From Stramenopiles sp. TOSAG23-2 (Eukaryota), in NCBI GenBank assembly GCA_900128395.1, contig LT649312.1, forward strand, positions 1 through 39,521: a stretch of 39,521 nt of DNA. Direction: 5' to 3'. A program made the translations under genes and the position numbers. Positions 1-30,037 of the stretch are shown here, piece after piece. Each line of letters opens with the position of its first letter. The stretch's first letter is position 1. Under the pieces are notes generated by a model. That model did no database searches and was not told the origin of the DNA. It saw only the letters and a program-made list of their open reading frames with translations.

Positions 1-2322
1 CGTAATAATGGTAAAAATAATAATAATATGACATTGAAAGGATACGTGAATCAAGTCGGTAAAGATAGTTATGGTGAGACATATAGTACACCTTTAGAAA
101 TAGCAACAGACCAAGCCATTATTGATTATCTATTCTCCATTCTATTAGATGGAGAAGTAATAGATGGAGATAGTTATTATAGTTATTATAGTTTGTATAA
201 GGAAGCATTTCCACGCGGTACACCATTAGCATGTGCATGTGAAAAAGGACGTTTGGATGATGTGAAATTATTGATTACAAGCCATGATGTGAATGGTAGT
301 AAAATGACATTGAAAGAATACATAAATCAAAAAGGTAAAAGTAGCAATGGCGAAGAATGTACACCTTTAATAATAGCTGCACAGACAGTAGCAAAGTATT
401 TCATCGAGATCATATATCCAGATGCATCTAAATTAGAAAAGAAGTATTATGCAGAATTTCGACAAGGTACACCATTAGTATGTGCATGTCAAGAAGGACG
501 TTTACAGGATGTGAAATTATTGATTACAGGCCATCGGGTGAATCAAGAAGGTAAAAATAGTTCTGGTATAAGATGTACACCTTTACAGATAGCAACAGAC
601 CAAGCCATTATTGATTATCTATTCTCCATTCATTTAGATGGAGTAACACTTAATACAAATACATTGACTGGTGTATATAAAAACGAATTTCCGCGTGGTA
701 CGCCATTAGTATGTGCATGTGAAAAAGGACGTTTTGAGGATGTGAAATTATTGATTATAGGCCATGATGTGAATGGTAGTAATGGTAATAATAATAATAA
801 TATGACATTGAAAGAATACGTGAATCAAGTCGGTAAAACTAGTCGTGGTAATGATTATACACCTTTACTGATAGCTGCAGAGAACAAACATTTCCAAATA
901 GTTAAATATTTAGTTGAGATCATTTATCCTCATGCATCTAAAGTAGAAAAGAAATATTATGCAGAATCTCCAAAAGGTACGCCAATAGTATGTGCATGTG
1001 AAAAAGGACGTTTTGAGGATGTGAAATTATTGATTACAGGCCATGATGTGAATGGTAGTAATGGTAATAATAATATGACATTGAAAGAATACGTGAAGAA
1101 AGTCGGTCAATGTAGTGATGGTTATGACTATACACCTTTAAAAATAGCTGCAGAGAATAAACATCAAGACATATTAGACTATTTGGTAGATGCTGCATAT
1201 GCTGATGAAACTGAGATAGTAAGGAAATATAAAAAAGAATTTCCAGACGGTATGCCATTGGTATGTGCATGTGAAAAAGGACGTTTGGAAGATGTGAAAT
1301 TATTGATTACAGGCCATGATGTAAGAACAAGTGGTATGACATTGAAAGAAATGATAAATCAACCAGGTACAACTGGTGAAGGTGTTCGTACACCTTTAAG
1401 AGCAGCTGCAGAGAACAACCACCTAGAAATTATTGAATATATTGTAGATAGTGTATATGCTGATGAAACTGAGTTATTTCGAAAGTATAAGAAAGAATTT
1501 CAAGGTAATGTATTAGTATGTTTATGTGAGAAAGGACGTTTGGATGATGTGAAATTATTGATTGAAGACCATGATATGAATGGTAGTACAGATATTGGTA
1601 ATAGTATGACATTGAAAGAATATGCAAATCAAGTTGGTATAACTAGTAGAGATTGTTCTGAGCAAACACTAACACCTTTAGAAGCAGCTGCAAAAAACAA
1701 ACATTTTCACATAGTAGATTATTTAGTTGATATTATATATGAAATAAGAGATTTAAATTTGTTGGTCAAAAAATATATGAAAGAATTTCCAGAAGGTACG
1801 CCATTAGTATGTGCATGTGAAGAAGGACGTTTTGATGATGTGAAATTATTGATAACATGCTATGATGTGAATGGTAGTGATGGTAACAATATGGCATTGA
1901 AAGAAATGGTGAATCAAAAAGGTAAAAACAGTTGGGGTGGTGAATGTAAACCTTTGAGAATAGCTGCAGAGAAAGAACATTTTAAAATAACAAAGTATTT
2001 AGTCGAGATTGTTTACCCAGATGCAACTAAATTAGAAAAGAATTATTATATATATTATGGTGGCACGCCTTTGGTATGTGCATGTGAAAAAGGACGTTTG
2101 GATGATGTGAAATTATTGATTGAAGACCATGAGGAGAATGGTAGTAATGGTAATAATAATAATATGACATTGAAAGAATACGTGAATCAAGTCGGTATAG
2201 ATAGTGAAGGTGATGAACATACACCTTTAAGTGCAGCTGCAAATAATGAACATTTCCAAATAGTTAAATATTTGATTGAACAATGTGAAGCTGATCCTAA
2301 TATACGTGAATCAAGTCGGTAA
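1..2322 (+). CDS. 5' part of giant ANK-kinase-WWE-PARP/Nudix gene: tandem array of paired ankyrin-repeat units (5'-truncated by window edge)
   Basis: Frame is open from base 1. It has 8 near-constant repeats (TPLVCACEKGRL/FEDVKLLI) alternating with variable repeats (VNQVG-x-TPLxxAA). A 124-bp imperfect duplication (2178-2301 / 2302-2427) shifts the frame into the next ORF. Confidence 0.85.
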   Translation, partial: RNNGKNNNNMTLKGYVNQVGKDSYGETYSTPLEIATDQAIIDYLFSILLDGEVIDGDSYYSYYSLYKEAFPRGTPLACACEKGRLDDVKLLITSHDVNGSKMTLKEYINQKGKSSNGEECTPLIIAAQTVAKYFIEIIYPDASKLEKKYYAEFRQGTPLVCACQEGRLQDVKLLITGHRVNQEGKNSSGIRCTPLQIATDQAIIDYLFSIHLDGVTLNTNTLTGVYKNEFPRGTPLVCACEKGRFEDVKLLIIGHDVNGSNGNNNNNMTLKEYVNQVGKTSRGNDYTPLLIAAENKHFQIVKYLVEIIYPHASKVEKKYYAESPKGTPIVCACEKGRFEDVKLLITGHDVNGSNGNNNMTLKEYVKKVGQCSDGYDYTPLKIAAENKHQDILDYLVDAAYADETEIVRKYKKEFPDGMPLVCACEKGRLEDVKLLITGHDVRTSGMTLKEMINQPGTTGEGVRTPLRAAAENNHLEIIEYIVDSVYADETELFRKYKKEFQGNVLVCLCEKGRLDDVKLLIEDHDMNGSTDIGNSMTLKEYANQVGITSRDCSEQTLTPLEAAAKNKHFHIVDYLVDIIYEIRDLNLLVKKYMKEFPEGTPLVCACEEGRFDDVKLLITCYDVNGSDGNNMALKEMVNQKGKNSWGGECKPLRIAAEKEHFKITKYLVEIVYPDATKLEKNYYIYYGGTPLVCACEKGRLDDVKLLIEDHEENGSNGNNNNMTLKEYVNQVGIDSEGDEHTPLSAAANNEHFQIVKYLIEQCEADPNIRESSR

Positions 2323-5137
2323 AACTAGTGATGGTTGGCCATGTACACCTTTAACGATAGCTGCATGGTTCGAACATTTCCAAATAGTTAAATATTTGAT
2401 TGAACAATGTGAAGCTGATCCTAATATTGCAGATAGTGATGGATGGAATGCATTACATCATGCAGCAGGTCATAACAAAACAAATACTGATGTGATTAAA
2501 CTATTATTAATTCATATGACTTTTGTTAGTATTGTGAGTGAAACCCGAGACGGGGGATCATACAGTCCCACATACTGTTGTTTTGAATATAATTTCAGCC
2601 CAATTCGAGAAGCAATTATTGCACTTATAGATAATTGTGAAATCAACGGATATATTGATAATGATATTCACCCTGAACGATATGTATATATAGCCTGTTC
2701 AAAAAATCCAAAAGAATATATCAGTTTATACAATGGTTTACCAAATGATCATCAAAAATTAATCAAGAAAAATCTTCACTCTCTTATACCATCCGTAAAT
2801 TGTTATGCTAATTTATTGCAACAAACATTAAAGGATAATGTTGATGTTAAATTTCACATTTCACCATCACAAATAAACATAGAAGTTAGGAAAATGGAAA
2901 TACAATATGAAAAAGTTGTTGAATTGCAAAAGCAATATTATGAGCTAAATAGCAATATTAATATTGATAACTGTAATGATAATGCTTCAATTATTGAACG
3001 AAACAAGGCTAGAGAAAAATATCACAAACATGCCAATGCATACATAAATATTATGAACAATAATTCATTTGCTGAAGCATATATTAATTATCTTAGCCAG
3101 GCATATAGAACACTTACAATTGTTAATGATATTATGAAAACAAACTTTTATTTTTTTGGACCAAATACATTATCAGATAAACACAAAGAGAAACTCAAAA
3201 AATGTATCATAGAAGCAGGTCTAGATGATAACGACGACGGCAACGACATCGATGATGATGAAAGCGCTTTACCAATGAAAATTAAAATGGAAATGTTGGA
3301 TGCAATAAAAAAAGACAATATTGACAATTTTCAAAACTTAATAACTGAATATTCAACCCGTTTATCCAATGATTATGTAATTAATGAATTGAAAGAAGAA
3401 GCAAAAGCGGCCAATAACACACCTGCTATAGAGTTAATCCAGGAATGGTGTAATGAATTTATGGATGTAAATGCAGATATGGCATCAAGTGACAATAATA
3501 ATGATCAAGAAGCCAGTATTGAAAATATTACGTTAGATATTAGTACCGACAAGGATGGAGCAGACAATGTAGGTAGCGCCACAAACATATTAGACTATAA
3601 TTGTTTACACGAGAGATTTCACCATTTTCAAAGCAATTTTACTAGTTTATTTGCAAAAATTAGCAAAGACTCAACCAACGACATAACAGTAGAATTCATG
3701 GGAAATTTGTTAATGAAAGTGAACAAATTAATTATATATGCAACGGTATTCATGGATGAGATAAAATCATCTATCGATATAATAAAAGTATTATTAGATG
3801 AATTTGATGTATGCAAATTGAAGTATGAACAATGGAAGGAAATAGTAACGAAATTTGCTATTGTAGATGACAACAGCAATGCAACCTTCAATTGGGAATA
3901 CGTATATGAGTTTAATTGGGACCAAGTATATCAGGAGTTTAAAGAAAAAAAAAAACAATTTAAGAAATTATTGAAAATGTTAAAACATGCAAAACTAAAT
4001 ATGGATGACCGTGACGAAGATGATGACGAGCAAGAATTAGAAAATAATTTAAACAAAGCCAGGGACGACGTGAAGAAAGCATCAGACGAATTAAACAAAC
4101 AATCATTGGAACTTTTAAAAATTGGACGAGAACATTTTAGGGAAATAATACTACAATTTGGCAAGAAGATAGCCCTTGGAGGATTTAATGATGTAGGAAC
4201 TGTTTGGAAAGCAATTTATCATAAAGATTTGTTTGAGAAAGATGCAGCCCCGAAGAATCATCTCCAATCATTAAATGTGGTAGAGTTTGTTAAATTCAAA
4301 AATAAAAGTTATGTGCTAAAAAAATATAATTTGATAGATGACAAAACACGAAGAGGGTTTCGTCGAGAAATAAGAACTCTGTTGAGATTAAATCATCCAA
4401 ATGTTGTGTCTGTAAATGCAGCATTTCAACAAGTTGAAAAAGAAAAATTTTCAGGTGGGACACTCGAAAAATATTCTGGTTTCATACTCATGCCACGTTA
4501 TCAGAATGGTGATCTATTGCAATGGTTAGATGATAAACGGCCGAGTGTTTATCAAGTACGTGTTGTGCTTCAAGACGCACTTCGTGGTATTGCCGCGTTG
4601 CATAAGGAAAATATCATACATTGCGATATAAAACCAAAAAATATATTTGTTGATGCAAATGAGAATGGTTACATTGGTGATTTTGATGTAAGTCTAGATA
4701 AAAAAAGTAGAACAATGGCATCAAAATTGCGAAGTACGTCCATGGCAACAGGATTTAAAGGTGGTACCTGGGAATACATGGCACCAGAAATAAAGCAAGA
4801 AACAAACGCTTCTAATGCAACCTATTTTTCCGATATGTATTCTTTTGGAAAGTCTCTAAAAGAAACGTTACAAATTGCAAGTAAGATGGAAGTAAACGAG
4901 AAGAAATCGGACATGGATTCACAAAATCCTCAGACAACAACAAATGATAATGAAGAAGATCAAAGTCAAAAAAATATTTTAAAATTTGTAAAAGCACAGC
5001 GAGAAAAATTGGACGAAGCAAGAAATGATTTAATACTCAAATTGATGGATAAAGAGCCGGAAAAGCGAGGGAATGCAAATGATGCGTTAAATCATCCATA
5101 TTTTGGAAAAGCTGTAGCCGAACATCAAAACAAACAG
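2276..5137 (+). CDS. Middle part of giant gene: final ankyrin repeats, helical/coiled-coil region and Ser/Thr-type protein kinase domain (about 4270-5105)
   Basis: ANK motifs TPLTIAA and GWNALHHAA. Kinase motifs VLKKY, RRE helix C, HCDIKPKN, GDFD (DFG variant), GTWEYMAPE, SDMYSFG, HPYF. Ends at splice donor 5138. Confidence 0.85.
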
Positions 5138-5209
5138 GTATGTAATATTTATATATAAACCAATTTTATTAATACTAACATGTTTATTTTTGCATAATCA
5201 TATATACAG
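5138..5209 (+). other. 72-nt spliceosomal intron, phase 0, joining the kinase ORF to the PARP ORF
   Basis: CAG|GTATGT donor at 5138, TACTAAC branch point at 5173-5179, CAG| acceptor at 5209. Splicing is in frame (HQNKQ|DKELEKS) and removes the stop at 5156-5158. Confidence 0.9.
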
Positions 5210-7473
5210 GATAAGGAATTGGAAAAGAGTATAACGCACATTTTAAGCCTTCGCCAAGCCGAAGCAGATCGTTTAAGTGAATTTGTGCAATGGGGATATA
5301 CAAACCAAAATACTAAGTTTATTAAGTTGAACCATCAACATAATTACATTGTTGAAGAATCGTATCGGAAATGGAGAAGGTCGGGTAATGTTGCTACGGT
5401 TGATCTGGATGAAAATTCAATTGATAAAACATTTTATAATTATAAAACTAGAGACATTGATACTATGAATCACCGACGTTTGTATTCTATTTTTTTTGAG
5501 AAACATAAGCAGGCTTCAAACAATGGCGCAAACTTTTCTTGTAGTGGACATTGTTTTGAAAACAACAATAGTTTGATTCAAACGTTTGTGAGAAAAGATA
5601 CTGTTGCTGAATTACGATTTAGTTTAAAAGAAAAGGAAGAAGAAATTGCTGCACTCAAGGCAAAAATAGGTAGACTAGAGGCAGAGCTTGCAAAGACTAA
5701 ATCGTTATTAAAAAATACGCAAAAGGAATTGAAGGACAAAGATCGTCTTTTGAAAAAAACGCAAAGGGAATTGAAGGACTGTTACAATGAACTTCAAAAA
5801 AAAGAAGAAAAACTGAATTTACAAAAGAAACTCTATAAGAACAAAGATCGTCTTCTAAAAAAAGCACGTTCGCAAATGCGAGGGGATAGAAGGAAATTAC
5901 GCCCATTTGCTATGCCACCATATTGGAGGACGCATTTATTAGGTGAAACAAAGCCAAAACATTACAATACTGAATTTATGAAGAAAAAAATGGAAGAGTT
6001 GATACGAAAAACAAGTGTATTTAAAACAACAGATAAAGCTAAAGTGATAAAAGTTGAACGAGTGGAATATCCAGCATTATGGGCTAGTTACTGTGGCATG
6101 GCCGAGCAAACGCGTAAACGTCATGCAAAGGTATTGAAAAAAAATGAACATAGTTTGAAAATGAAGATGGGACAGAAACCTATAACATATAGACTTCCAA
6201 AAGATCGAGGAGGTAGAAGGGCTCCCTTATATACTATAACAACAACTAATATACGTAGTAATTATGATCGATCAAAAGTCTCTAAGACTTATAAAGGTGC
6301 TGGTATTCTCCCATATGCAATCGATAAAAATGGCACAATAAAAGTTCTATTAGGTCGAATAAATTATGGGATTATGGAACCATATGCCGACTTTGGTGGC
6401 CTGCGTGATCCTGGTGAAGATAGTACAAAATTTACTGCATCACGTGAGTTTACAGAAGAAACACAAGAGTTATTTAAGCACAATCAAGCAGAGACAATAG
6501 CTATGTTAGAGAACGAGAATACGAACAATGTTGTGAGGATACATAATGAATCTGCCCATTATGTTATGTATATGCTAAAGGTCGACTTTAATAAGTATCC
6601 TAAACATTATAAACAAGCACTGGAAACACCATCAAAATTGAAACATAAAATAGAATTATCAGAAATGAAATGGATTCCGTTAAAAGATATCATTAAAGCA
6701 GTCAAACAAGCCAAAAATAAAGGGCACTGTTACGATGTTGCCGTGAACAATGATAAGGAAATTATTTTAAGGAAAGAATTAGTTGACACATTGATTATTG
6801 CATATGACGGAGGTATTTTGGATAAAATAGTGAAAAAATCTTACTCTAGTATATCCAGGAAAAAAATATCTGCATCTATACAATATCCATTGTTTCAACT
6901 TGATACGCGTATTAATGAATTTTATTTATGGCATGGAACGAGTGCAGAGTCTGCTAAAATTTTGACCAGCACAGGCCTGCCAACAGAACACCTTGCTGGT
7001 TCAAACTCTGGTGCATTATATGGCAATGGAATGTATTTTGCTGAAAATTCTTCAAAATCCGATCAATATACACAGCCAGGTCGTCAAGGTCGTCGCGTTT
7101 TATTACTATGCCGTGTGGCACTGGGGAAAATATTTTACACGCCAAAAGCGTTGATAGGATTAAAACATCCTGGCCCTGGATGCAGTAACAAGTTTAAAAA
7201 CTTAAAGTCGACGCAAGGTGCTAAAAAGTTAGGTAGTGCTCTATTTGACTCCATTGTAGCAGATGGAAAAACGAATCGTTTTGGTGCAAAACAGATACAC
7301 CGAGAATTTGTAATATTTGATGCACAAAGATGTTATCCTGAATTCATAGTTTTGACTCCATTGTAGCAGATGGAAAAACGAATCGTTTTGGTGCAAAACA
7401 GATACACCGAGAATTTGTAATATTTGATGCACAAAGATGTTATCCTGAATTCATAGTATGGTACAAACACTAA
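5210..7473 (+). CDS. 3' exon: WWE-like domain, coiled coil, tankyrase-like PARP catalytic domain with inserted Nudix hydrolase
   Basis: WWE-like QWGY..IVEESY..YSIFFEKHKQ (about 5280-5530). PARP motifs PPYW, KVERVEYPALWASY, NEFYLWHGT, GMYFAENSSKSDQY, LLLCRVALG, HREFVIFD, YPEFIV. Nudix box GGLRDPGEDSTKFTASREFTEET at 6395-6463. As assembled it stops at 7366; collapsing the 107-bp duplication gives YPEFIVWYKH* ending at 7473. Confidence 0.85.
7244..7457. repeat. Exact 107-bp tandem duplication (7244-7350 / 7351-7457)
   Basis: Two identical copies read directly; it disrupts the PARP C-terminus. Confidence 0.95.
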
Positions 7474-7499
7474 ACACACTAAACACTAAACATGCATAG

Positions 7500-7943
7500 G
7501 TGTATTATTTATGGCATGGAACGAAGGCAGTGTTTGCTAAGATTTTGACAAGTACAGGTCTGCCAACAGAATACCTGGCTAGTTTAGGTTCACTATATGG
7601 CTTGGGAATGTATTTTGCTGAAAATGCTTCGAAATCGGATGAGTATGCAATATCTAAACAACCTGGACCAGGTCATGGAGTACTCTTGTTATGCCGTGTC
7701 GCATTAGGCAAAATATTTTACACGCCCGCAGGATTAAAAGGTTTAAAACATCCTGGCCCTGGATGTGGCTCTATGTTTGAAAAATTGGAGTCAACACAAG
7801 GTGGCAAAAAATTAGGCAGTGTTCTTTTTGACTCAATTGTAGCAGACAGAAAAAGTAGGGGCAGGTCACAGCATCATTGAGAGTTTGTTATATTTGATGC
7901 ACAAAGGTGTTATCCTGAATTCATTGTGACGTACAAACGCTAA
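7500..7943 (+). pseudogene. Second PARP catalytic core copy with in-frame TGA just before the catalytic Glu
   Basis: YYLWHGT..GMYFAENASKSDEY..LLLCRVALG..QHH*EFVIFDAQRCYPEFIVTYKR*. TGA 7878-7880 aligns with CGA (Arg) 7301-7303 of the first copy. No ATG or N-terminal PARP part. Confidence 0.8.
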
Positions 7944-8142
7944 AGACACGTTTTTTAGAATATCGTTATTTTTAGAATATCGTTAATCATATAACGCTTC
8001 GTATGTTCTATTCAATATCTAACTGTCTTACACTGGACATTATTTGCAATGTCTGGTTGTCTGCTTATTTATTATCGGAGGAGATGATGGTAATGTTGGT
8101 AGTGGCAATAATTCCGAGAATGTACGAGTAGAATATTATTGT

Positions 8143-8352
8143 TGAAATATATATGTTTGATCCAAGTCGATTTTATTTGTTTTGAAAAGCATACATGTGT
8201 GGGGAGTTTATGAATTCGGAATTCGGTGTGGAGAAGAATCTAAAATCTGAAATATATATGTTTGATCCAAGTCGATTTTATTTGTTTTGAAAAGCATACA
8301 TGTGTGGGGAGTTTATGAATTCGGAATTCGGTGTGGAGAAGAATCTAAAATC
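8143..8352. repeat. Exact 105-bp tandem duplication (8143-8247 / 8248-8352)
   Basis: Two identical non-coding copies. Confidence 0.95.
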
Positions 8353-8611: not shown

Positions 8612-9748
8612 TCAAAATATAAAACTATTAATAAGTATAATAATCATATTTGTATCAAATTATATATCGGATATTTATTATAATAATTTTAAAGTGATAA
8701 AATACTGGAATTTTGGGCATGAAATCAATTTGATGAAAAATGAAAATCCGAGAATCATGATTTCATACCCAAAATTCCAGTATTTTATCACTTTAAAATT
8801 ATTATAATAAATATCCGATATACAATTTGATACAAATATATGATTATATAGTTATTAATACTATTATATTTTGACTATATAATTCCATAATTAAAAAACC
8901 AAGGTATACGACATAACAATACTGGAATTTTGGGCATGAAATCATGATTCTCGGATTTTCATTTTTCATCAAATTGATTTCATGCCCAAAATTCCAGTAT
9001 TTTATCACTTTAAAATTATTATAATAAATATCCGATATACAATTTGATACAAATATATGATTATTATAGTTATTAATACTATTATATTTTGACTATATAA
9101 TTCCATAATTAAAAAACCAAGGTATAGAAATAATGCATTTACTTACGGAAAATATTTTCACCTGAAATCTTGTTTTTAGTGCTATGTAGTGCTAAAGCCC
9201 TGGGCTGGCCCAGTCTGTGCATTAATTACTTACGGAAAATTTAGCACTACATAGCATTAAAAACAAGATTTCAGGTGAAAATATTTATCGTAAGTAAATG
9301 CATTATTTCTATACCTTGGTTTTTTAATTATGGAATTATATAGTCAAAATATAATAGTATTAATAACTATAATAATCATATATTTGTATCAAATTGTATA
9401 TCGGATATTTATTATAATAATTTTAAAGTGATAAAATACTGGAATTTTGGGCATGAAATCAATTTGATGAAAAATGAAAATCCGAGAATCATGATTTCAT
9501 ACCCAAAATTCCAGTATTTTATCACTTTAAAATTATTATAATAAATATCCGATACATAATTTGATACAAATATATTATTATTATAGTTATTAATAATATT
9601 ATATTTTGACTATATAATTCCATAATTAAAAAACCAAGGTATAGAAATAATGCATTTACTTACGGAAAATATTTTCACCTGAAATCTTGTTTTTAGTGCT
9701 ATGTAGTGCTAAATTTTCCGTAAGTAATTAATGGACAGACTGGGCTAG
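8612..9748. repeat. Nested inverted-repeat (foldback/MITE-like) complex: one 544-bp palindrome and two partial copies
   Basis: 9205-9748 is a near-perfect palindrome centred on a 32-bp spacer (9461-9492). 8918-9196 is the reverse complement of about 9240-9520. About 8612-8908 is a further partial hairpin around the same spacer (8727-8758). Confidence 0.9.
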
Positions 9749-10686: not shown

Positions 10687-13600
10687 ATGGCTGAAGTTAT
10701 AAATCCTGGACAAAAAGGTGGACAGGAAGATAGCTCAAAGCCCATCATTTGCTTAGCAGGTTGGTTTTATACTGATGAAAGCAGAACTTGGAAATCCTTT
10801 ATTAAACACCCAGATCTCGAAAATATACTAGAAAAATATGGTATAACAGTGAATAATCGCGTCCCAAAAAAAAAAAAAGAGTGTGACTTTTTATTAGTAA
10901 GTGAAGGGAATCCAGAAGATGAAAGAAAGGACAGCAAGGGAAAAAAATATTATTATAGGAATATAGCGCGAATAAAAATAAAAAGTAGCGAAACCAATCC
11001 TCAACAAAGTGATGAAAAACAAATTTGGATAGATGGATCGGATAAGTATGAAGCTGCAAAAAAATTAGGCATCGAAATAAAACACGACAAGGATGCACGT
11101 GCATACATTCAAGAATTGTTGAGTAATTCATATGAGATACATGAGTTAACAAAGGAGGGAACAGATGATGTGTGGCAAATAAGAAGATATGGACAATTTT
11201 TAATACACCTTTGGAAGCACAAGAAGCATACAATTATCCGTGGAATCGTTGCATTTGATAATGCAAAGAAGAAGATGGACGAGCTTGTCAAAGAAAAACG
11301 AAAAGAAGGATATGATGATATTGATAAAAACGAAAACTCGGAGTTCATAGGTCCCTCAAAACCATTCAAGTGCTCATCATTTCCACAAATAACGCCATTT
11401 TTATCTACTAAACAGAAAAATGAAAGAATTAAAGTATTTATACAAGATATTAAAGATTGCACGAAAAATAATTTTAAATTCAATATTATCATGAGTGATC
11501 TTGGGATGTTTGTAGAAATATTTTTACTGGAATTAAAGAAGTGTAAAAATAATAAGAAACTACAACGTATAAAAAATGGCATCAAAGAACAATTCAATCG
11601 TTTAGTGGAAGTTGCGAAGGAAAAAAAAAATACAGAAAAAGAAGGCAAAGATTGGTATTTTCTTTTAATACTTTTTCCTATGATCATAGCAATGGACGAA
11701 AACGAAAAAAACTATATACTTCAAAGGGATATGAAACGCATTGAGAACCAATATTACAACAGAAAATCTAAAACAGAGTCTAAAAAGGACAAATCACGTC
11801 AGGTTCCTAAGGAGCCTACTCATGACGATATGTATAAAACACATATACTTTCATGTAACCAACAAGAAAAGTTTAAAGAGCTACAACAGAAATTCAAAAA
11901 CTCAAAATCTATAGACAAAGTAGAAATAAAAAATTTTCATAAAGCTATTCGTGAGTCCATATCCCTAAAAACACTACAGAAAATGATTAAGTATATGAAG
12001 ATTAAAACGGACATAGCCGACATAGCCGAAATCCATAGCAATGAAGATGCGAAAAAAACAGAAATTACTGAAGACATAGTTGGTTTTGAATCAATCGATC
12101 CAGACGGTGGTTTGTTCACCAAAGCACCAATGGAAACTTCTAACAGTGGTGTCAACAACTTTTGCGCAGCATTCAGCTGCTGCTTTACAAGTCAAAAAAA
12201 CAATTATGTAAATTTTGTTCGCATTGGTATACTTATTCTCGAAGCAATTCCACAAATATTCAGGTTTGCTTTTGTGCACCGATGGAACAATTTATACCCG
12301 CATTTCGAGTTTAAAATAAAGCAAGCAGAAAGTGGGCGTCGATTAGTTGATGGGGGGGATGTAATTCGTAGGGCATCTAATGAAAAGTGGACAATTAGTA
12401 GGATTCAGCAGCATCAGGTAAAAAAGAGGTTTTATACATGTATCATGAGTGAGGATCTCAAAACAGAACTCACGGGCCGTATACAAAACTTAAAAAGAGG
12501 CGATGGTGAAGTATGCCTGGTTTTTCATGATACAGATAATTTCAAATATTTAAAAGCGCAGCATATTATAAAGATAGAAGAGAAAGAAAACCTCATTAAT
12601 TCCAATGATAAGACACTGAAATTTGAGTATAAATTCACATCAATTATTCTTATGACCTTCAACGATTTAATCGTTAATAAAATATTTGAAAATACGTATG
12701 TAACTAAAAAAAAAGAAAAAGAATATGAAAAAACGTACCTATGTGAAAAATTGCTTTTGGAAAATCTTTTGAAAACCACGCTTGAAAAATCCAGTGAGCA
12801 AGTTGACATTGTACATCGTATACCTGGACCAAATTGGGACAAAATTAAAGGTAAAACCATTGATGAAAATAGTAAACATCTTTTCGAAAACGCCATGATT
12901 GATGACTTAGATGTCACATGCATGAATGCCATTTTTAAAAATATAGGGGGCCTTTGTGACATGAAATCAGATCAATTCAACAAAGGGGAAAAGGAGAGAA
13001 AAAAATTGTACAAAAACAAGAACATTACGACTTTTGAAGCTTGGATAGATAAGGTTGGTGAATCAAACATTTCACCAGAAGTTATTCTTAATGAATTAAA
13101 ATTTATACGCAATAAAAAATTAGCACATCGTCATAGTACTAAGGTGCCTGACAAAGAATGGCGATATTGCAAAGAACTGTTTTTATATTTTTTGGGTATA
13201 TTGATAGAAAACAAATGGCTCAGCAAAGAGGAGGTCACAAAATTAAAAAAAAAAGTTAAAGAGGCAGAGGCTGTTAATATGAGCGACGGTATGAATACCG
13301 TGGAAAACATCCAAAGTAGAATGGAAACATTATTTTCAAATATTGACACGCAAGTAAAGGAATTTGAAAAAAACGTATCAAAGGTAAAGAAGGACGCACA
13401 ACAATTTGGAGACATAGTATCAAAGGCAGGTGATGATACACAGAGATTGGGAAAAGTTGTAACGAAGTTTGAAAAATTCGCAAGTTGCTTCGAAGATATG
13501 ATAAAAGTGTTGAATCTCAACAGTAATAATGATATAATAAAAAATGAAGAACGAAAAAATGACATGCAGAAACCTGTGAGTGATAAGATTAATTATAGCA

Positions 13601-16600
13601 ATGATTCTGGTGAAATAATTCATATAATAGTGGCCCAATTATTACTTTTAACTAAGCTAGCCGAAGGAGACAATGTTAGTAGAGAAAAACAATCCGATTT
13701 GGCCAGGAATCTAAAAAGGGCTTTGAACCAAGTGATGGATATAAGGAAAGATGTATCTTCTGGATGGTACCGCGCTTTAGACCTTCCTTCCATATTAGCT
13801 CCAATGAAAACATTAGCATTAAAATTAAATGCTATCTCATTGACAAATCCCGGAATGAATACAACATCATCACCAACAACAACAATATCATCAGATTCTA
13901 TATCCTCTGTTACAGGGCTTATTTATTTATGCATACCAAATATTGAAAAAGATAAATATGAAAATGTTAATATTCAATTTTTATTAGAAGCACAACATAT
14001 ACAACAATTTACAGGTGCAAAACTTTATCAAGGGAATTATGAAACGTTTTTAGAAACAATTGACTCACATGAAAATCAATCTATCAAATGGATACATTTT
14101 ATTGGACATGGTGGTAAAAATACATTTGGACGTGATTTAGGACTTGTATTAGCCGATGATAAAGGAAATTTAGAACATATTGAAGATGAACGTTTAATAA
14201 AAACATTGCGTACACGTACAACGCAACTCGAATTAGTAACATTTAATGCATGTTCTACAAGTAAATTAGTGGCCGCAATAACAAAACAAAATGGAGTGAA
14301 ACATTCATGGGGATGGTCAACAAAATGCCATGGTTATGCTGCAGCTATTATTGGAAAATGGTTTTATTATCATCATATAGTATTAAAGAAGTCCGTATTG
14401 GATGCATTTGAATGTGCAAAAAGTTATGTTGATGTAAAAACAAAAGTGATTGGAAAAGGTGTTGATAATGTTCTCATTTCAGAGGAACAATTTGTATTTG
14501 GTGATCCATCGAAAAAAACAAAAATTGATAACATGGATGTAGCTGGTATACCATTATTACTAAATAACAAATGGCAAGATAAATTTCCATATGCCTGGTA
14601 TGCACTTTCATATAAAAAAACATGGTCGAAGAAAATTCATAATAATAAATTTAATGAAGTGTTATATTATGTTTGTAGCAATGAAAATGAAATTTGCACT
14701 GTAACGGGCATACGTGGATGTGGTGGTGCAGGTAAAACTGTACTTTGTTTACAATTGGCTCAAGATCCGTTGATCTATTCGACATTTAAACACGGTGTTG
14801 TATATATCAAAGCAGGACAAGAAGCAAGACCGCTTAATATATTAAAACAATGTTTTAAACAATTGAAAGAGGACAAGAAATTAATTAAATTAAATATAAA
14901 GGATGAAAAAGATTATGAAATATATCTTGATGGAGAGAAAACGTTTGGGGTTGACGATGAAACAATGACGCGAAATTGGGTCAATGATAAAAAGTTAAAG
15001 TGGTTAGTTGAAAAATTACAGCAATATTTGCAAGGCATAGATTTACATGCTGTTGTTATTATTGATGATGTTTGGTCCGACAAGTGTTTTGATCACTTAA
15101 CTTCAATAATACAAGCAAAGGCATGCAATTCGCGTATTGTTATATCAACAAGAAATAGTACCATATTGGAAGGTAAAGATAAAAAAGAATTTTGTTTAGA
15201 TACATTAAATGAGACGGATGCCATTGATTTTTTCAAGGGGCAAACAAATGATAATGATAGTAATTGGAACGAAAACGACTTAAAAGATATTGTTAACAAG
15301 ACTGGCAAACTTGTCCTTTTTCTCTCCATATTAGCAAAAAAAGTTAACTTTAAAAACTACGAAGATGGTGGTTTAAATCGTATACTAAAAGCATTAGATC
15401 CTAATCGATCGACATTAAGAAACACTTCAATTGGATTAAAAAAAATCTTCAATAAAGCAGAAGATGATGTAGCATATGGAAAATCTGCATTAGCTTGCTT
15501 ATCAATTGGTGTTGATTTTATTGAAGATGATATTCAAGATGATCAAGGTAAAGAGGTACAAAATAAATATATCATGTTGGGTATATTTCCTGAAGATAGT
15601 GAAATATCATATGAAGCATTAAAGGTATTATGGAATTTTGATGATATAAATTATGTCGAAGAACATGTTGAATATTTTTCTAATCAATCTCTTTTAGTTA
15701 ATAATCGAACAGGTAAATATATTAAAATGCATAATTTACAGTGTAGATATGTGATTGAACGTTTGAAGGAAGATAATGATGGTATTGAAATTGATCAATT
15801 ACTTAAAATTATAGCAAGTACCATGGTTGAATTTCCAAATGCTTTTAAGGATTGTGTTGAAACGACCAACATTATTTGTTCATCGATTATATGTGCATGC
15901 GAGAGAGGGCGTTTGGAAGATCTCAACATATTGCTTGAAGCTAAGGATAGTGTTAATAAATTCGGCAAAAGCATTCGTGGTCATGAATGTACACCTTTAA
16001 TGGCAGCATGTGTATGTGGGCATTTAAAAATCGTAGAATTGCTATTGAGTAAAGGTGCTGATGTTTTACAAGCAGAAAGTCGATTTGGTTGGACTGCTTT
16101 GCATTGGACTATATTATGTGAACCAAAACCAGACGAATATATCCAGATAATAAATAAGCTTTTGGAGGTAAAAGCAGAAGCATTAGTAAATCAAAGAACA
16201 CGGCAAGGGGAAACTGCGTTAGATTGTGCAAGTAACAGACTTGATTCTGTTGAATTTTGTGAATTATTGAAAATGAAAGGGGGGAAACGAAGGGTCGAAT
16301 TAGAAGAATATACGAGGAAAGCTGAGCGGATAAATTACTTGTTTGAGGCGGTAAAAGATGATGATATGATAAGCATTTACATAGGTGAGCTAACTAATGG
16401 TGATGAAAATAGTGTACTAGAACATTATGTGGATGATAATGGCAATAATCTGCTTCATCATGCTGCAATGCATAGTAAAAATGCCGATACAATGAAATTA
16501 TTATTACAACACACGTTGTTAGAGGAAGCTGTATTTAAAAACGAAATCACAAAAAAGACACCATTAGATGTTGCAAAGGAACGTAAGAAAAAAAACGACG

Positions 16601-17031
16601 AAACAGAGATTAAAAACAAAATTACTAAAAAGGCGCCATCGGAAATTGAAGTTATGATTGCATTGTTAATGAAAACCAAATACGTAAAAGATTTATATGC
16701 AGCTGTTAAAAATGATAACCAGGCTTCAATAATAGAATGCATAAAGCAGCTCGATAGTCTAGCTTTAATACTGTATGGCAAGGGTGAAAAGATTATACTA
16801 GGGCATTATTTGAATGATGCTTGCAATAATCTGCTTCATCATGCTGCAATGCATAGTAAAAAGGCCAGTACAATGAAATTATTATTACAATACATGTTGT
16901 TAGAGGATGCTGTATTTGAAAACAAAATCACGAAAAAGACACCATTACAGGTCGCAGAGGAACGGAAGAAAGAAAACGACGGAACAGAGATTAAAGAGAT
17001 AATTACATTGTTAAAGATGAAATTTGAGTAG
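10687..17031 (+). CDS. STAND NB-ARC (APAF-1-like) NLR-type protein: BRCT - WGR-like - HEPN - coiled coil - CHAT protease - NB-ARC - ankyrin repeats
   Basis: BRCT: IICLAGWF..LENILEKYG..GSDKYEAAKKLGI. WGR-like: RRYG..AKKKMDELVKEKRKEGY. HEPN: NFVRIGILIL..FRFAFVHRW, DLDVT, RNKKLAH (13108-13128). CHAT: HFIGHG (His 14107), FNACS (Cys 14251). Walker A GCGGAGKT (14716-14739), Walker B VVIIDDVW, sensor ISTRN, MHN (15727). ANK: TPLMAACVCGH, GWTALHW, GETALD, NLLHHAA twice. Confidence 0.88.
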   Translation: MAEVINPGQKGGQEDSSKPIICLAGWFYTDESRTWKSFIKHPDLENILEKYGITVNNRVPKKKKECDFLLVSEGNPEDERKDSKGKKYYYRNIARIKIKSSETNPQQSDEKQIWIDGSDKYEAAKKLGIEIKHDKDARAYIQELLSNSYEIHELTKEGTDDVWQIRRYGQFLIHLWKHKKHTIIRGIVAFDNAKKKMDELVKEKRKEGYDDIDKNENSEFIGPSKPFKCSSFPQITPFLSTKQKNERIKVFIQDIKDCTKNNFKFNIIMSDLGMFVEIFLLELKKCKNNKKLQRIKNGIKEQFNRLVEVAKEKKNTEKEGKDWYFLLILFPMIIAMDENEKNYILQRDMKRIENQYYNRKSKTESKKDKSRQVPKEPTHDDMYKTHILSCNQQEKFKELQQKFKNSKSIDKVEIKNFHKAIRESISLKTLQKMIKYMKIKTDIADIAEIHSNEDAKKTEITEDIVGFESIDPDGGLFTKAPMETSNSGVNNFCAAFSCCFTSQKNNYVNFVRIGILILEAIPQIFRFAFVHRWNNLYPHFEFKIKQAESGRRLVDGGDVIRRASNEKWTISRIQQHQVKKRFYTCIMSEDLKTELTGRIQNLKRGDGEVCLVFHDTDNFKYLKAQHIIKIEEKENLINSNDKTLKFEYKFTSIILMTFNDLIVNKIFENTYVTKKKEKEYEKTYLCEKLLLENLLKTTLEKSSEQVDIVHRIPGPNWDKIKGKTIDENSKHLFENAMIDDLDVTCMNAIFKNIGGLCDMKSDQFNKGEKERKKLYKNKNITTFEAWIDKVGESNISPEVILNELKFIRNKKLAHRHSTKVPDKEWRYCKELFLYFLGILIENKWLSKEEVTKLKKKVKEAEAVNMSDGMNTVENIQSRMETLFSNIDTQVKEFEKNVSKVKKDAQQFGDIVSKAGDDTQRLGKVVTKFEKFASCFEDMIKVLNLNSNNDIIKNEERKNDMQKPVSDKINYSNDSGEIIHIIVAQLLLLTKLAEGDNVSREKQSDLARNLKRALNQVMDIRKDVSSGWYRALDLPSILAPMKTLALKLNAISLTNPGMNTTSSPTTTISSDSISSVTGLIYLCIPNIEKDKYENVNIQFLLEAQHIQQFTGAKLYQGNYETFLETIDSHENQSIKWIHFIGHGGKNTFGRDLGLVLADDKGNLEHIEDERLIKTLRTRTTQLELVTFNACSTSKLVAAITKQNGVKHSWGWSTKCHGYAAAIIGKWFYYHHIVLKKSVLDAFECAKSYVDVKTKVIGKGVDNVLISEEQFVFGDPSKKTKIDNMDVAGIPLLLNNKWQDKFPYAWYALSYKKTWSKKIHNNKFNEVLYYVCSNENEICTVTGIRGCGGAGKTVLCLQLAQDPLIYSTFKHGVVYIKAGQEARPLNILKQCFKQLKEDKKLIKLNIKDEKDYEIYLDGEKTFGVDDETMTRNWVNDKKLKWLVEKLQQYLQGIDLHAVVIIDDVWSDKCFDHLTSIIQAKACNSRIVISTRNSTILEGKDKKEFCLDTLNETDAIDFFKGQTNDNDSNWNENDLKDIVNKTGKLVLFLSILAKKVNFKNYEDGGLNRILKALDPNRSTLRNTSIGLKKIFNKAEDDVAYGKSALACLSIGVDFIEDDIQDDQGKEVQNKYIMLGIFPEDSEISYEALKVLWNFDDINYVEEHVEYFSNQSLLVNNRTGKYIKMHNLQCRYVIERLKEDNDGIEIDQLLKIIASTMVEFPNAFKDCVETTNIICSSIICACERGRLEDLNILLEAKDSVNKFGKSIRGHECTPLMAACVCGHLKIVELLLSKGADVLQAESRFGWTALHWTILCEPKPDEYIQIINKLLEVKAEALVNQRTRQGETALDCASNRLDSVEFCELLKMKGGKRRVELEEYTRKAERINYLFEAVKDDDMISIYIGELTNGDENSVLEHYVDDNGNNLLHHAAMHSKNADTMKLLLQHTLLEEAVFKNEITKKTPLDVAKERKKKNDETEIKNKITKKAPSEIEVMIALLMKTKYVKDLYAAVKNDNQASIIECIKQLDSLALILYGKGEKIILGHYLNDACNNLLHHAAMHSKKASTMKLLLQYMLLEDAVFENKITKKTPLQVAEERKKENDGTEIKEIITLLKMKFE
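16420..16997 (+). repeat. Internal duplication of a C-terminal ankyrin unit (about 16420-16615 and about 16803-16997)
   Basis: HY(V/L)..NNLLHHAAMHSK.A.TMKLLLQ..LLE.AVF.N.ITKKTPL.VA.ERKK.ND.TEIK occurs twice with high DNA identity. Confidence 0.85.
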
Positions 17032-28012: not shown

Positions 28013-30037
28013 ATGCCGGAACCACAAATTGGGGATCGTGTACGTGTCATAGGACGTAATGCAATACATGAAGGTACATGCAAATATTTTGGGACCACAT
28101 TATTTCGTGAAGGATATTGGGTTGGTGTTGCATTAGACTATCCAAATGGTAAAAATGATGGTTGTGTAGAAGGTACCAGGTATTTCAATTGTAGACCTAA
28201 TTATGGTTTATTTGCTAGGGTGCAAGTTGTTGAAATATTACAAACAAGGCAACAAATTCAACAACGACAAGTGCAGCAGCAGCAACAGCAGCAACAGCAA
28301 CAACCACTAGCACAAATGCAACAACAACAACAACAACAATCACGACAAAACAATGGTTTATCAACAACCTCATCCTCCCCACCACTACGTATTAAATCAT
28401 TAGGTGGACAACTACGAGTAAAATCAAATATATTTCGATTTGAAAAGGTTCGAAATGAATGGTCAGAAATTGGAGATGGGTATGTTAATTTATATGTTGC
28501 AATGAGTGAAAGAAATGTTCCACGTGTTACACTTCAAGGTGCACGTAATAATCTTGGAATTGTTAATCATTATATTGAAATTGAGACAAAACTTGAACCA
28601 AATGTTGGTAGTGATCGTGCTTGGGTATTTCGTGCAAAAACATTACAAGATGATAAAGGGGAAGTATTAGCTTTGCAATTTCAAACACCAAAAGATGCAA
28701 TGGATTTCTCATCACATTTTGCTCGTTCTTGTCAAACAGTTCGACAATACAGAACAAAAGGTAGCAATAGTAATAATAATAGTATCAATAATAATAATAT
28801 CAATAATAATAATAATAATAATAATAATGCAGCACCACCACCAGCTCCACAATCTAATAATAATAATAATAACAATAATAGTAATGGTCAAATGGCACCA
28901 CCACCACCACCACCACCACCACCAGAAGAAGAAGAAGAAGAAGAGGAGGAGGTGAGACAACGGAATAATTATAATAATGCAAATGGTGGTTTTACTACTA
29001 CTAATAGTAATGGTAACCTTTCGAAAAAAATTCAAAAACAACGAAGACGTTTAAGTATTGCTGGAAACGATGCACGTGCAGATGGTGTAGTACATCGTTC
29101 TTCCACAACAAATCCAAATGGAAATAAAATGGATACAAGGAAAAAAGGTGCAAATTTAAATGGTCAATTTCAAGCTACATCAAGCAACACTATTGTTAAA
29201 AGTTACATTGGTATGTCAAAAAAAGGATATGCACCATATAATATTAAAAAAGAAAACCAAGATGCATGTTTTATGCATGAGGATCCAATTACACAATCTA
29301 TTTTATTAGGTGTATTTGATGGACATGGTGAGCATGGACATCGTGTATCCCGTTACATAGAGCGCAATGTACCACCAGCCATTTTTAAGCATCCTAGCTG
29401 GAAAAGTACACCAAAAACGGCAATGACAACTGCATTATTATCCAAGGAGAAAGAAATATTGCAAAATCGATCGATCAATACATCGTTAAGTGGGACAACA
29501 GCAGTAGTTGCAACTGTACGTAAAAATATATTAACCGTAGCAAATATTGGAGATTCCAGATTGATATTAGCATTGAGAAATAATAAAAATCGTTTAAAAC
29601 CATGTAGTGTGACGGAGGATCATAAACCAGATTTACCAACGGAACAAAAAAGAATTGAACGAGCTGGTGGACGTGTATGGGCAATGACATATGATGATGG
29701 TGTAGATGGCCCTGCAAGAGTATGGTTAAAAGATCAAGAATTACCAGGCCTTGCCATGTCACGTAGTATTGGTGATGAAGTTGCAAAACGTGCTGGGGTT
29801 ATCTCCAATCCAGAAATATTTGAATATGAAGTACCAGAACAAGCTGCATTTTTATGTATGGCAACTGATGGTTTATGGGAATTCATGTCGGATGATGATG
29901 TAGTTCATATCATTGAACAAGCAAATGGGAATGGTAAATTAGCAATACAAACATTGATGAAAGAATCAGAACGAAGATGGAAAAACGAAGAGCCTGTAGT
30001 GGACGATACGACGGTAGTCATTGCATATTTTGAGTAA
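28013..30037 (+). CDS. CAP-Gly + RanBP1-like (RanBD/PH-fold) + PP2C protein phosphatase
   Basis: CAP-Gly WVGVALDYPNGKNDGCVEGTRYF. RanBD-like IFRF..EWSEIGDG..NHYI..LEPNVGSDRAWVF. PP2C NQDA, VFDGHG, SGTT, NIGDSR, DHKP, GLAMSRSIGD, ATDGLWE, DDTT. Confidence 0.88.
   Translation: MPEPQIGDRVRVIGRNAIHEGTCKYFGTTLFREGYWVGVALDYPNGKNDGCVEGTRYFNCRPNYGLFARVQVVEILQTRQQIQQRQVQQQQQQQQQQPLAQMQQQQQQQSRQNNGLSTTSSSPPLRIKSLGGQLRVKSNIFRFEKVRNEWSEIGDGYVNLYVAMSERNVPRVTLQGARNNLGIVNHYIEIETKLEPNVGSDRAWVFRAKTLQDDKGEVLALQFQTPKDAMDFSSHFARSCQTVRQYRTKGSNSNNNSINNNNINNNNNNNNNAAPPPAPQSNNNNNNNNSNGQMAPPPPPPPPPEEEEEEEEEVRQRNNYNNANGGFTTTNSNGNLSKKIQKQRRRLSIAGNDARADGVVHRSSTTNPNGNKMDTRKKGANLNGQFQATSSNTIVKSYIGMSKKGYAPYNIKKENQDACFMHEDPITQSILLGVFDGHGEHGHRVSRYIERNVPPAIFKHPSWKSTPKTAMTTALLSKEKEILQNRSINTSLSGTTAVVATVRKNILTVANIGDSRLILALRNNKNRLKPCSVTEDHKPDLPTEQKRIERAGGRVWAMTYDDGVDGPARVWLKDQELPGLAMSRSIGDEVAKRAGVISNPEIFEYEVPEQAAFLCMATDGLWEFMSDDDVVHIIEQANGNGKLAIQTLMKESERRWKNEEPVVDDTTVVIAYFE

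Follow-up and report, generated by a model that had tools for sequence, protein, structure and literature searches.

A Nudix-fold domain nested within the PARP catalytic domain of a stramenopile signalling protein

A PARP catalytic domain in two pieces

In the 39,521-nucleotide contig LT649312.1 of the marine, single-celled eukaryote Stramenopiles sp. TOSAG23-2 (GenBank assembly GCA_900128395.1), which was analyzed over its whole length and is termed the window in the following, an open reading frame (ORF) at 5219-7366 on the forward strand (715 codons, open throughout) encodes a PARP catalytic domain in two pieces, with a Nudix-fold domain between them. Both PARP pieces are kept, but they are separated by about 237 residues that comprise a linker and the Nudix domain. 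We consider it almost certain that the Nudix domain is looped out of a continuous ADP-ribosyltransferase (ART) fold, and thus that the architecture is nested and not a tandem fusion. The insertion site is a surface loop, between the first ART helix and the strand with the catalytic His. Both PARPs and Nudix hydrolases are familiar enzymes. A full-text literature search, outside of which lay supplementary tables and the 2015 survey by Aravind et al., found no report of PARP and Nudix domains that are nested or fused.

The N-terminal PARP piece (residues 231-308; 5909-6142, + strand) comprises a PPYW motif, a helix, and the first ART strand and helix, and the C-terminal piece (residues 546-711; 6854-7351, + strand), recognized by Pfam, profile, and Foldseek matches, contains His572, Tyr606, Tyr617, and Glu696. 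A first-pass annotation had described an N-terminal PARP element, a NEFYLWHGT motif about 270 residues behind it, and the motifs of a Nudix domain in between. All these motifs were found where that annotation had located them, with the small correction that the N-terminal element, KVIKVERVEYPALWASY (residues 275-291), covers 6041-6091 and does not extend to 6092. This element lies inside the N-terminal PARP piece, NEFYLWHGT corresponds to residues 566-574 (6914-6940), and the stretch between Y291 and N566 amounts to 274 residues.

The two pieces were recovered by several profile searches. The Pfam PARP profile (PF00644; 72.1 bits with a cut-off of 26.7) matched residues 563-711 and began only at profile position 45, and the insert-free homologues P0005, P0007, and P0012 each gave a single match that started at profile position 14-17 and ended at 197. 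A hidden Markov model (HMM) of 248 positions, built from 24 homologues without the insert, aligned in collinear order to both pieces, with positions 2-88 on residues 231-308 (26.4 bits, E 2.9e-10 in a one-sequence search) and positions 95-242 on residues 546-711 (165.1 bits). In P0002 and P0014, two homologues from metagenomes, the match to this HMM splits at the same variable loop as in the window protein. A phmmer search of the PDB aligned residues 562-654 to PARP15, and residues 268-293 aligned weakly to residues 57-82 of PARP15, a strand and helix about 10 residues before the His strand. With a profile of 31 family sequences, the crystal sequences of tankyrase-2 and tankyrase-1 were matched in one piece (best E 1.6e-30), and this alignment encompassed the catalytic Glu as well as the N-terminal helix and the strand-helix pair that follows it: the N-terminal element of the family fell on the tankyrase-2 segment immediately preceding its His strand, and the conserved Glu of the family on the catalytic Glu motif of tankyrase-2. 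His572, Tyr606, and Glu696 occupy nearly invariant columns of the 31-sequence alignment. The His-Tyr-Glu triad is intact, and judged from these residues the PARP part would be an active ADP-ribosyltransferase.

The first-pass annotation had proposed structure prediction as a check. The AlphaFold2 model of residues 225-715, generated with 31 sequences, had a mean predicted local distance difference test score (pLDDT) of 77.1 and a predicted template modeling score (pTM) of 0.58. The strand 278-281 and the helix 285-308 were confidently predicted (pLDDT 82-91), as were an alpha/beta domain at 360-539 and the PARP body at 567-714, and the connecting residues 309-357 (49 residues) and 549-558 had pLDDT values below 50. 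The check thus returned a confident N-terminal element and two confident domains joined by low-confidence linkers. When the whole model was compared with the PDB using Foldseek, PARP15, PARP10, PARP12, PARP14, and PARP4 matched the C-terminal piece (E about 1e-10, with 150-159 columns for the mono-ADP-ribosylating PARPs); the alignment was confined to this piece, and the packing of the N-terminal element is thus not shown by Foldseek. In a split-chain fold of the N-terminal element against the C-terminal piece, run without use of the family alignment, the score was 0.58, with 0.00 as the best of three controls, at least 68% of the contacts agreeing between runs, and a partner pLDDT of at least 50. 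Of 78 solved complexes, 51 reached the mark applied here, as did 2 of 108 mismatched pairs. At scores of at most 0.60, it was reached by only 5 of the 78 solved complexes and by all 4 mismatches that passed. If a fold has solved relatives, its two halves may also pass through likeness. This result lends weak support to the packing.

A simple tandem fusion, in which 6041-6092 would not be part of the ART fold, had been named in the first-pass annotation as the outcome that would speak against nesting. The two collinear HMM pieces, the tankyrase-2 and PARP15 alignments, and the AlphaFold2 model all assign this segment to the ART fold.

The insert is a complete Nudix-fold domain plus a flexible linker. 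Linker 1 (residues 309-355, 47 residues; 6143-6283, + strand) is predicted to be disordered, with pLDDT values below 50 (model residues 85-133). The nested domain (residues 356-545; 6284-6853, + strand), identified by Pfam, a subfamily HMM, AlphaFold2, and Foldseek, includes a C-terminal helical extension. Its motifs are GAGILPY (6296-6316), DFGG (6389-6400), REFTEET (6443-6463), and EMKWIPL (6662-6682), and the Nudix box, as read from the sequence (residues 394-418; 6398-6472, + strand), holds Arg409, Glu410, Glu413, and Glu414. The Pfam NUDIX profile (PF00293, cut-off 21.1) scored 23.0 bits with the insert alone, 21.9 bits with P0002, and 20.5 bits with the whole protein, and the subfamily HMM scored 289 bits on the insert. 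AlphaFold2 modeled the insert alone (186 residues, 14 sequences) with a pLDDT of 91.5 and a pTM of 0.89, and Foldseek found 165 matches of this model in the PDB at E <=0.001, the matches listed being Nudix enzymes. Arg409, Glu410, Glu413, and Glu414 occupy nearly invariant columns of the 14-row subfamily alignment, being kept in at least 90% of the rows. The model and the Foldseek matches agree with the earlier claim of a complete Nudix fold inside the PARP domain, and the box glutamates Glu410, Glu413, and Glu414, described as intact, are present.

Conservation and relatives of the nested domain

An exhaustive phmmer search with residues 225-715 against 1.84 billion representative sequences yielded 2881 matches at E <=0.001, of which the best 150 were examined; a nested protein is expected among these, because both of its parts would score. 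Two of these 150 proteins, P0002 (520 residues, 65% identity) and P0014 (955 residues, 38% identity), match in one stretch that reaches from the N-terminal element to the C-terminus. P0066 and P0075 match the Nudix part only, and the remainder match the PARP part. P0002 stems from one contig, and the 6 members of the P0014 cluster come from three sources. Within its one ORF, P0014 encodes a protein kinase, recognized by Pfam, and a coiled coil ahead of the PARP. The identity between the window protein and P0002 is 67% in the Nudix core, 70% in the PARP C-terminal piece, and 52% in linker 1, the lowest of the compared regions; the corresponding values for P0014 are 31% in the Nudix core and 51% in the PARP C-terminal piece. 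Judged from these identities, the Nudix insert is conserved to about the same degree as the PARP, and the insertion is old, because it is common to a homologue with 38% identity. A scan of metagenome contigs for more nested loci gave 104 pattern matches, none of which was confirmed, and with the insert as a single-sequence query for stand-alone relatives, none of 174 candidates reached E <=0.001.

The same loop was then examined across the family by running the insert-free HMM over 160 family proteins, 24 of which had served to build it. It matched 157 of them, and 140 had at least one contiguous domain. In 8 of the 157 proteins, 106-265 residues lie between the N- and C-terminal pieces (P0108, with gaps of 4 residues, was excluded from this count). 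These 8 include two of the Nudix-bearing proteins; the other carriers are P0016, P0013, P0018, P0062, P0087, and P0159, and no Pfam domain was found in their six inserts, which may hide further domains. The loop before the His strand is therefore an insertion hot spot, with the Nudix domain as its only recognizable cargo.

The Nudix subfamily to which the insert belongs is otherwise found mostly in giant viruses and metagenomic proteins. A comparison of the insert with predicted viral structures (BFVD) gave 121 matches at E <=0.001, the top ones being giant-virus Nudix proteins with E values down to 2.2e-12 and query-normalized TM scores of 0.70-0.76, and with matches over nearly the whole domain in Pandoravirus, Pithovirus, a chlorovirus, Marseillevirus, and others. 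In the ESM Atlas, its nearest neighbors are NUDIX clusters with a viral share of 96-100% (score 0.96). Relatives are encoded at 48 viral-contig loci, with 25-32% identity over the full length and up to 49% over short segments. The subfamily HMM matched all 63 scanned sequences, including all 48 viral ORFs, whose matches cover the 194-position HMM from 5 to about 145 and leave out the C-terminal extension. The resemblance to giant-virus Nudix proteins that the first-pass annotation had pointed out is thus borne out at the family level, in view of these loci and of TM scores of 0.70-0.76 versus 0.34-0.54 for solved structures. Giant-virus Nudix proteins are stand-alone, whereas the Nudix domain of the window lies inside a PARP.

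The phylogeny that had been proposed together with this resemblance was calculated from the 63 sequences, which after removal of identical rows left 54 domains. The nested Nudix copies cluster together with the fragment P0164 (98/79, not starred), and their group is sister to P0066 and then to P0167/8 and P0075, all of which are non-viral metagenomic proteins. The main viral clade comprises 30 rows (97/90), and the nested copies lie outside of it. A single nested group fits one insertion event. Because the tree has no root and contains several long branches, it shows neither the direction of transfer nor the donor. The idea of a captured viral domain finds no support in this topology, in which the nested copies branch with non-viral metagenomic proteins and not inside the viral clade.

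Some features of non-nested subfamily members may be mentioned here. In P0066 (573 residues), the closest non-nested relative, the Nudix domain follows a sub-threshold match to the RapZ C-terminal domain (26.4 bits, cut-off 27). A likewise sub-threshold WWE match, also ahead of the Nudix domain in P0066 (Pfam E 0.032; BLASTP E 0.072 to one WWE region and nothing to a second one) is a weak lead only. The stand-alone members P0162, P0163, P0166, P0167, P0168, and P0010 have hydrophobic, signal-peptide-like N-termini, and the source name of one stand-alone member is a Paracaedibacteraceae genome. This suggests that stand-alone members may be secreted Nudix proteins of intracellular bacteria.

Gene model, transcripts, and neighboring genes

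ORF 5219-7366 appears to be only the last exon of a gene that is larger than the first-pass annotation had seen. The upstream exon (2276-5137, + strand) encodes ankyrin repeats (about 2285-2515; Pfam Ank_2), a long helical/coiled region, and a Ser/Thr kinase (about 4295-5104; Pfam Pkinase, 110.6 bits). It is followed by a predicted 72-nt spliceosomal intron in phase 0 (GTATGT...TACTAAC...CAG; 5138-5209, + strand), which was recognized by sequence reading and in-silico joining, and by the last exon (5210-7366, + strand), for which ORF translation and Pfam indicate a conserved region, a coiled coil (about 5591-5899), and the split PARP with the Nudix domain, up to a TAG stop codon at 7364-7366. 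When the 72-nt interval was removed in silico, ORF 2276-5158 joined in frame, and the combined frame is open over 1672 codons. Both exons align collinearly with P0014 across the predicted intron, with 33% identity in the kinase (E 5e-46). The product is the 3'-encoded part of a large eukaryotic signalling protein with ankyrins, a coiled coil, a Ser/Thr kinase, a second coiled coil, and a tankyrase-like PARP. A WWE domain at 5210-5560 was considered and rejected, with no Pfam match even at E <=10 and a probability of about 1% (E 0.055) in hhalign comparisons with three WWE domains.

The product shares with the tankyrases (PARP5a/5b), which give the family profile its best matches among solved structures, the position of ankyrins upstream of a His-Tyr-Glu PARP. 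In contrast to tankyrases, the ankyrins are separated from the PARP by a kinase and coiled coils, and a Nudix domain lies within the fold. A SAM domain, which is a tankyrase trait, gave no match at E <=0.1 in either ORF. As combinations of ankyrins and PARPs arose several times in protists according to PMC4245714, the resemblance to tankyrases is a likeness and not orthology.

A search of sequencing runs listed 22 runs, 20 of them containing part of the stretch and 6 recorded as RNA. Small shares of its words in marine metagenome runs are not taken as evidence of habitat. For four RNA-library runs, which belong to three studies, we checked the contigs; these are short and of low depth, and DNA carry-over is possible in them. 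They cover 4876-5138, 5217-5364, 5859-6274, 6262-6450, 6496-6927, 7043-7193, and 7376-7526. Contigs at 5981-6239 and 6124-6274 cross the upstream boundary of the insert and a contig at 6777-6927 crosses the downstream boundary, showing that the insert is contiguous with both flanks, and no joint that skips the insert was present in the contigs of the four runs. At the predicted intron, one contig ends at 5138 and another begins at 5217, both from one study; none joins the two sides, and these ends are not evidence for the intron. One low-depth contig carries 8 non-matching letters before 6262, without acceptor-like context and with one window match at chance level, and we give this no weight.

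The end of the gene is covered by a perfect 107-bp tandem duplication (7244-7457, + strand; two copies, 100%, found by repeat search). As 107 is not a multiple of three, the duplication shifts the frame, changes the last four residues, and brings in the TAG codon at 7364-7366. The second copy would end as P0002 does. The duplication could be due to real slippage or to an assembly artefact. Further downstream, a truncated second copy of the PARP C-terminal piece only (7503-7943, + strand) starts from the YLWHGT strand (79% mean column identity to the 3' part of the gene; Pfam PARP, 51.4 bits). It has an in-frame TGA codon at 7878-7880 and indels in multiples of three, and its protein is nearer to P0002 than to the neighboring gene, as judged by eye. 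This copy may lie in the 3' untranslated region, and one RNA-library contig spans 7376-7526.

At the other end, the ankyrin-encoding ORF 1-2322 and ORF 2276-5158 continue the same repeat, one frame apart near 2320. A 23-nt intron joining these ORFs was rejected because no GT-AG pair restores the frame, and a one-base frame change near 2300-2330, i.e., a frameshift or a sequencing error, is the more likely cause. If it is a sequencing error, the gene reaches the start of the window.

These irregularities bear on the question of whether the nesting has any function at all, as it would have none if it were an assembly or annotation artefact, if the gene were decaying, or if the insert were spliced out of the mRNA. 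The locus is indeed unstable, considering the duplication, the truncated PARP copy with its stop codon, and the upstream ankyrin frame change, and the best-matching DNA run (0.99 of words) is very small and may be the source of the window itself. However, the 715-codon frame is open, the same layout occurs independently in the metagenomic P0002 and in the P0014 cluster with its three sources, the insert is conserved at the protein level, the RNA-library contigs span both boundaries without any skip, and the duplication alters no more than the last four residues. We therefore regard a non-functional nesting as very improbable.

The window is AT-rich (about 31% G+C), and no tRNA genes were found in it. 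Its long ORFs encode ankyrin, protein kinase, CHAT and NB-ARC, C2, LRR, and CAP-Gly, RanBP1, and PP2C proteins. A 2114-residue protein encoded at 10687-17031 carries a CHAT protease, an NB-ARC domain, an APAF-1-like winged helix, and ankyrin repeats, and together with the neighboring LRR, kinase, C2, and ankyrin genes this CHAT/NB-ARC gene has the look of a protist immune or death-signalling cluster. The ORF at 28013-30037 has an unusual combination of CAP-Gly, RanBP1, and PP2C phosphatase domains. The repeat-rich intergenic regions at 8126-8335 and 8646-9713 contain a 105-bp tandem pair (93%) and units of 202-222 bp with a spacing of 517 bp (98%).

Possible roles of the nested Nudix domain

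The first-pass annotation had put forward a self-limiting PARP, a two-step phosphoribosylation enzyme, an NAD sink, or a decoy as conceivable roles. Our tentative view, the most likely of those considered but in itself somewhat short of probable, is that the nested domain is a cis-acting Nudix pyrophosphatase that would trim or consume the ADP-ribose products of its own PARP, so that writer and processor would reside in one protein. The PARP part would transfer ADP-ribose from nicotinamide adenine dinucleotide (NAD+) onto itself or onto targets that the ankyrin and kinase parts might bring in. The tethered single-domain Nudix would then cleave the pyrophosphate of the ADP-ribose made by the PARP, free or protein-linked, with release of adenosine monophosphate (AMP), and the mark could thereby be shortened, converted to phosphoribose, or made short-lived. 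The insert enters the fold where the His strand begins, which by simple geometry is the strand end away from the nicotinamide pocket, and the reach of the Nudix domain would depend on the linkers. There is precedent for such a chemistry: PMC4680915 describes that RppH and NUDT16 degrade protein-linked mono- and poly-ADP-ribose to phosphoribose and that dedicated ADP-ribose pyrophosphatases do not, and PMC9503650 discusses whether viral Nudix domains might degrade ADP-ribose. The insert resembles NUDT16 and RppH in being a single-domain Nudix, and NUDT16 is among its fold matches (2xsq, 6b09), but with a TM score of about 0.44 and 18-20% identity this is a generic fold similarity only.

Several observations weigh against this view. 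With a pTM of 0.58 and low-confidence linkers, no proximity of the Nudix and PARP active sites is evident from the AlphaFold2 model. The Nudix domain itself appears to bear no substrate-specific signature. Its top solved match is an Ap4A hydrolase (1ktg, E 1.5e-6), followed by NrtR with ADP-ribose, Dcp2, NUDT5, NUDT16, and TRPM2, and with query-normalized TM scores of 0.34-0.54 the solved Nudix matches are generic and have no clear favorite; the Nudix sequence profile likewise gave only generic Nudix matches in the PDB (E >=0.049), with NUDT9 at E 0.96. The consensus of the Nudix box is GX5EX7REUXEEXGU, and ADP-ribose pyrophosphatases have a Pro about 15-16 residues after the box as a signature. 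In the window protein, the G, the first E, and R-E-x-x-E-E are present. The box departs from the consensus in spacing, as there are 8 residues before RE and thus one too many, and in the position of the last Gly, which is a Gln; the spacing before RE also varies between members of the subfamily. No Pro occurs in the 21 residues that follow the box. Finally, P0014 has replaced the Arg and both paired Glu, i.e., three of the four RE..EE residues, and has no Pfam NUDIX match. At least one lineage can thus do without Nudix catalysis, and readings that require it everywhere are weakened by this.

In a more specific variant, which we consider rather improbable, the enzyme would carry out a two-step phosphoribosylation: the PARP would add ADP-ribose, the nested Nudix would cleave it at once with release of AMP, and the final mark would be a phosphoribose or phosphoribosyl link. 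In this immune-like signalling protein, the ankyrin and kinase modules would direct it. Such an outcome is, to our knowledge, so far known only from bacterial SidE-type effectors. In the SidE family of Legionella, a mono-ADP-ribosyltransferase and a phosphodiesterase are combined that ADP-ribosylate and then cleave the pyrophosphate to yield a phosphoribosyl link and AMP. Unlike the window protein, these are bacterial effectors and not eukaryotic signalling proteins, with an ART of an unrelated clade, a phosphodiesterase of an unrelated fold, and domains in tandem.

The loss of the box residues in P0014, which retains the nested domain in the same loop and with 31% identity in its core, would be readily explained if the Nudix were mainly a ligand sensor or regulatory module that responds to ADP-ribose, NAD-derived, or dinucleotide signals and switches the PARP, with hydrolysis serving only to reset it. 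The Foldseek matches include two Nudix domains with ADP-ribose as a bound ligand, those of NrtR (3gz8, E 1e-5) and of the TRPM2 channel (8sr9, 8srd). In NrtR and in the NUDT9-H domain of TRPM2, a Nudix fold binds ADP-ribose and controls an attached module, although there the Nudix is terminal and attached to a DNA-binding domain or a channel, and in sequence the insert showed no specific relationship to either. An insertion within the fold, and not at its end, would also be the geometry expected of an allosteric switch, and sensing of ADP-ribose by NrtR-type Nudix domains is described in PMC9503650. On the other hand, all four catalytic residues are retained in the window protein, in P0002, and in at least 90% of the subfamily rows, which is expected of enzymes, and the long disordered linkers (47 residues on one side and about 10-17 on the other) would be poor at transmitting a conformational change. 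A mainly regulatory role is the chief rival to the preferred view, but we consider it to be unlikely on balance.

The fold matches also bring up the possibility that the Nudix acts on substrates unrelated to the PARP, such as mRNA or NAD caps or dinucleoside polyphosphates, and merely shares a scaffold with it in a signalling or immune protein. Besides the top-ranking Ap4A hydrolase, the decapping enzymes Dcp2 and X29 are among the solved matches, and the closest large family is that of the giant-virus Nudix proteins, whose characterized members are decapping enzymes according to PMC9503650. The 106-265-residue inserts in 6 other members suggest that the loop may be permissive for any cargo, and the neighbors are NB-ARC/CHAT, LRR, kinase, and ankyrin proteins. 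However, a Nudix domain lies inside a PARP in three proteins, with a single origin and long retention, and no other recognizable enzyme domain was detected at this site. Furthermore, cleavage of the pyrophosphate in ADP-ribose-type molecules is well-known Nudix chemistry, and the weak, sub-threshold WWE lead in the sister protein P0066 (E 0.032) may point to a link with ADP-ribose. We thus hold an unrelated substrate to be rather improbable.

With regard to the preferred view of a writer joined to a processor, the macro-domain PARPs (PARP9/14/15) are known counterparts. In these proteins, one polypeptide writes ADP-ribose and also carries a domain for its binding or removal, and in the window protein the writer is likewise joined to a putative ADP-ribose-handling domain. 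PARP15, PARP14, and PARP10 are also the best single-sequence and fold matches of its C-terminal piece. The arrangement differs, as the Macro domains lie in tandem upstream, whereas the catalytic fold itself encloses the Nudix domain. The bond cleaved by Macro domains is that between ribose and protein, whereas the Nudix domain would cut the pyrophosphate and leave phosphoribose. The macro-domain PARPs are without the catalytic Glu, which is present in the window PARP as Glu696.

A maker and likely breaker of ADP-ribose in one protein is a rare layout. If the Nudix domain processes the PARP product, the protein would be a natural writer-plus-processor enzyme, and this could amount to a self-limiting ADP-ribosylation switch or to a route to eukaryotic phosphoribose marks. 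It would also provide a compact reagent for mapping ADP-ribosylation sites. The tolerance of the loop before the His strand toward whole-domain inserts is useful for engineering and for reading the expansions of PARPs in protists.

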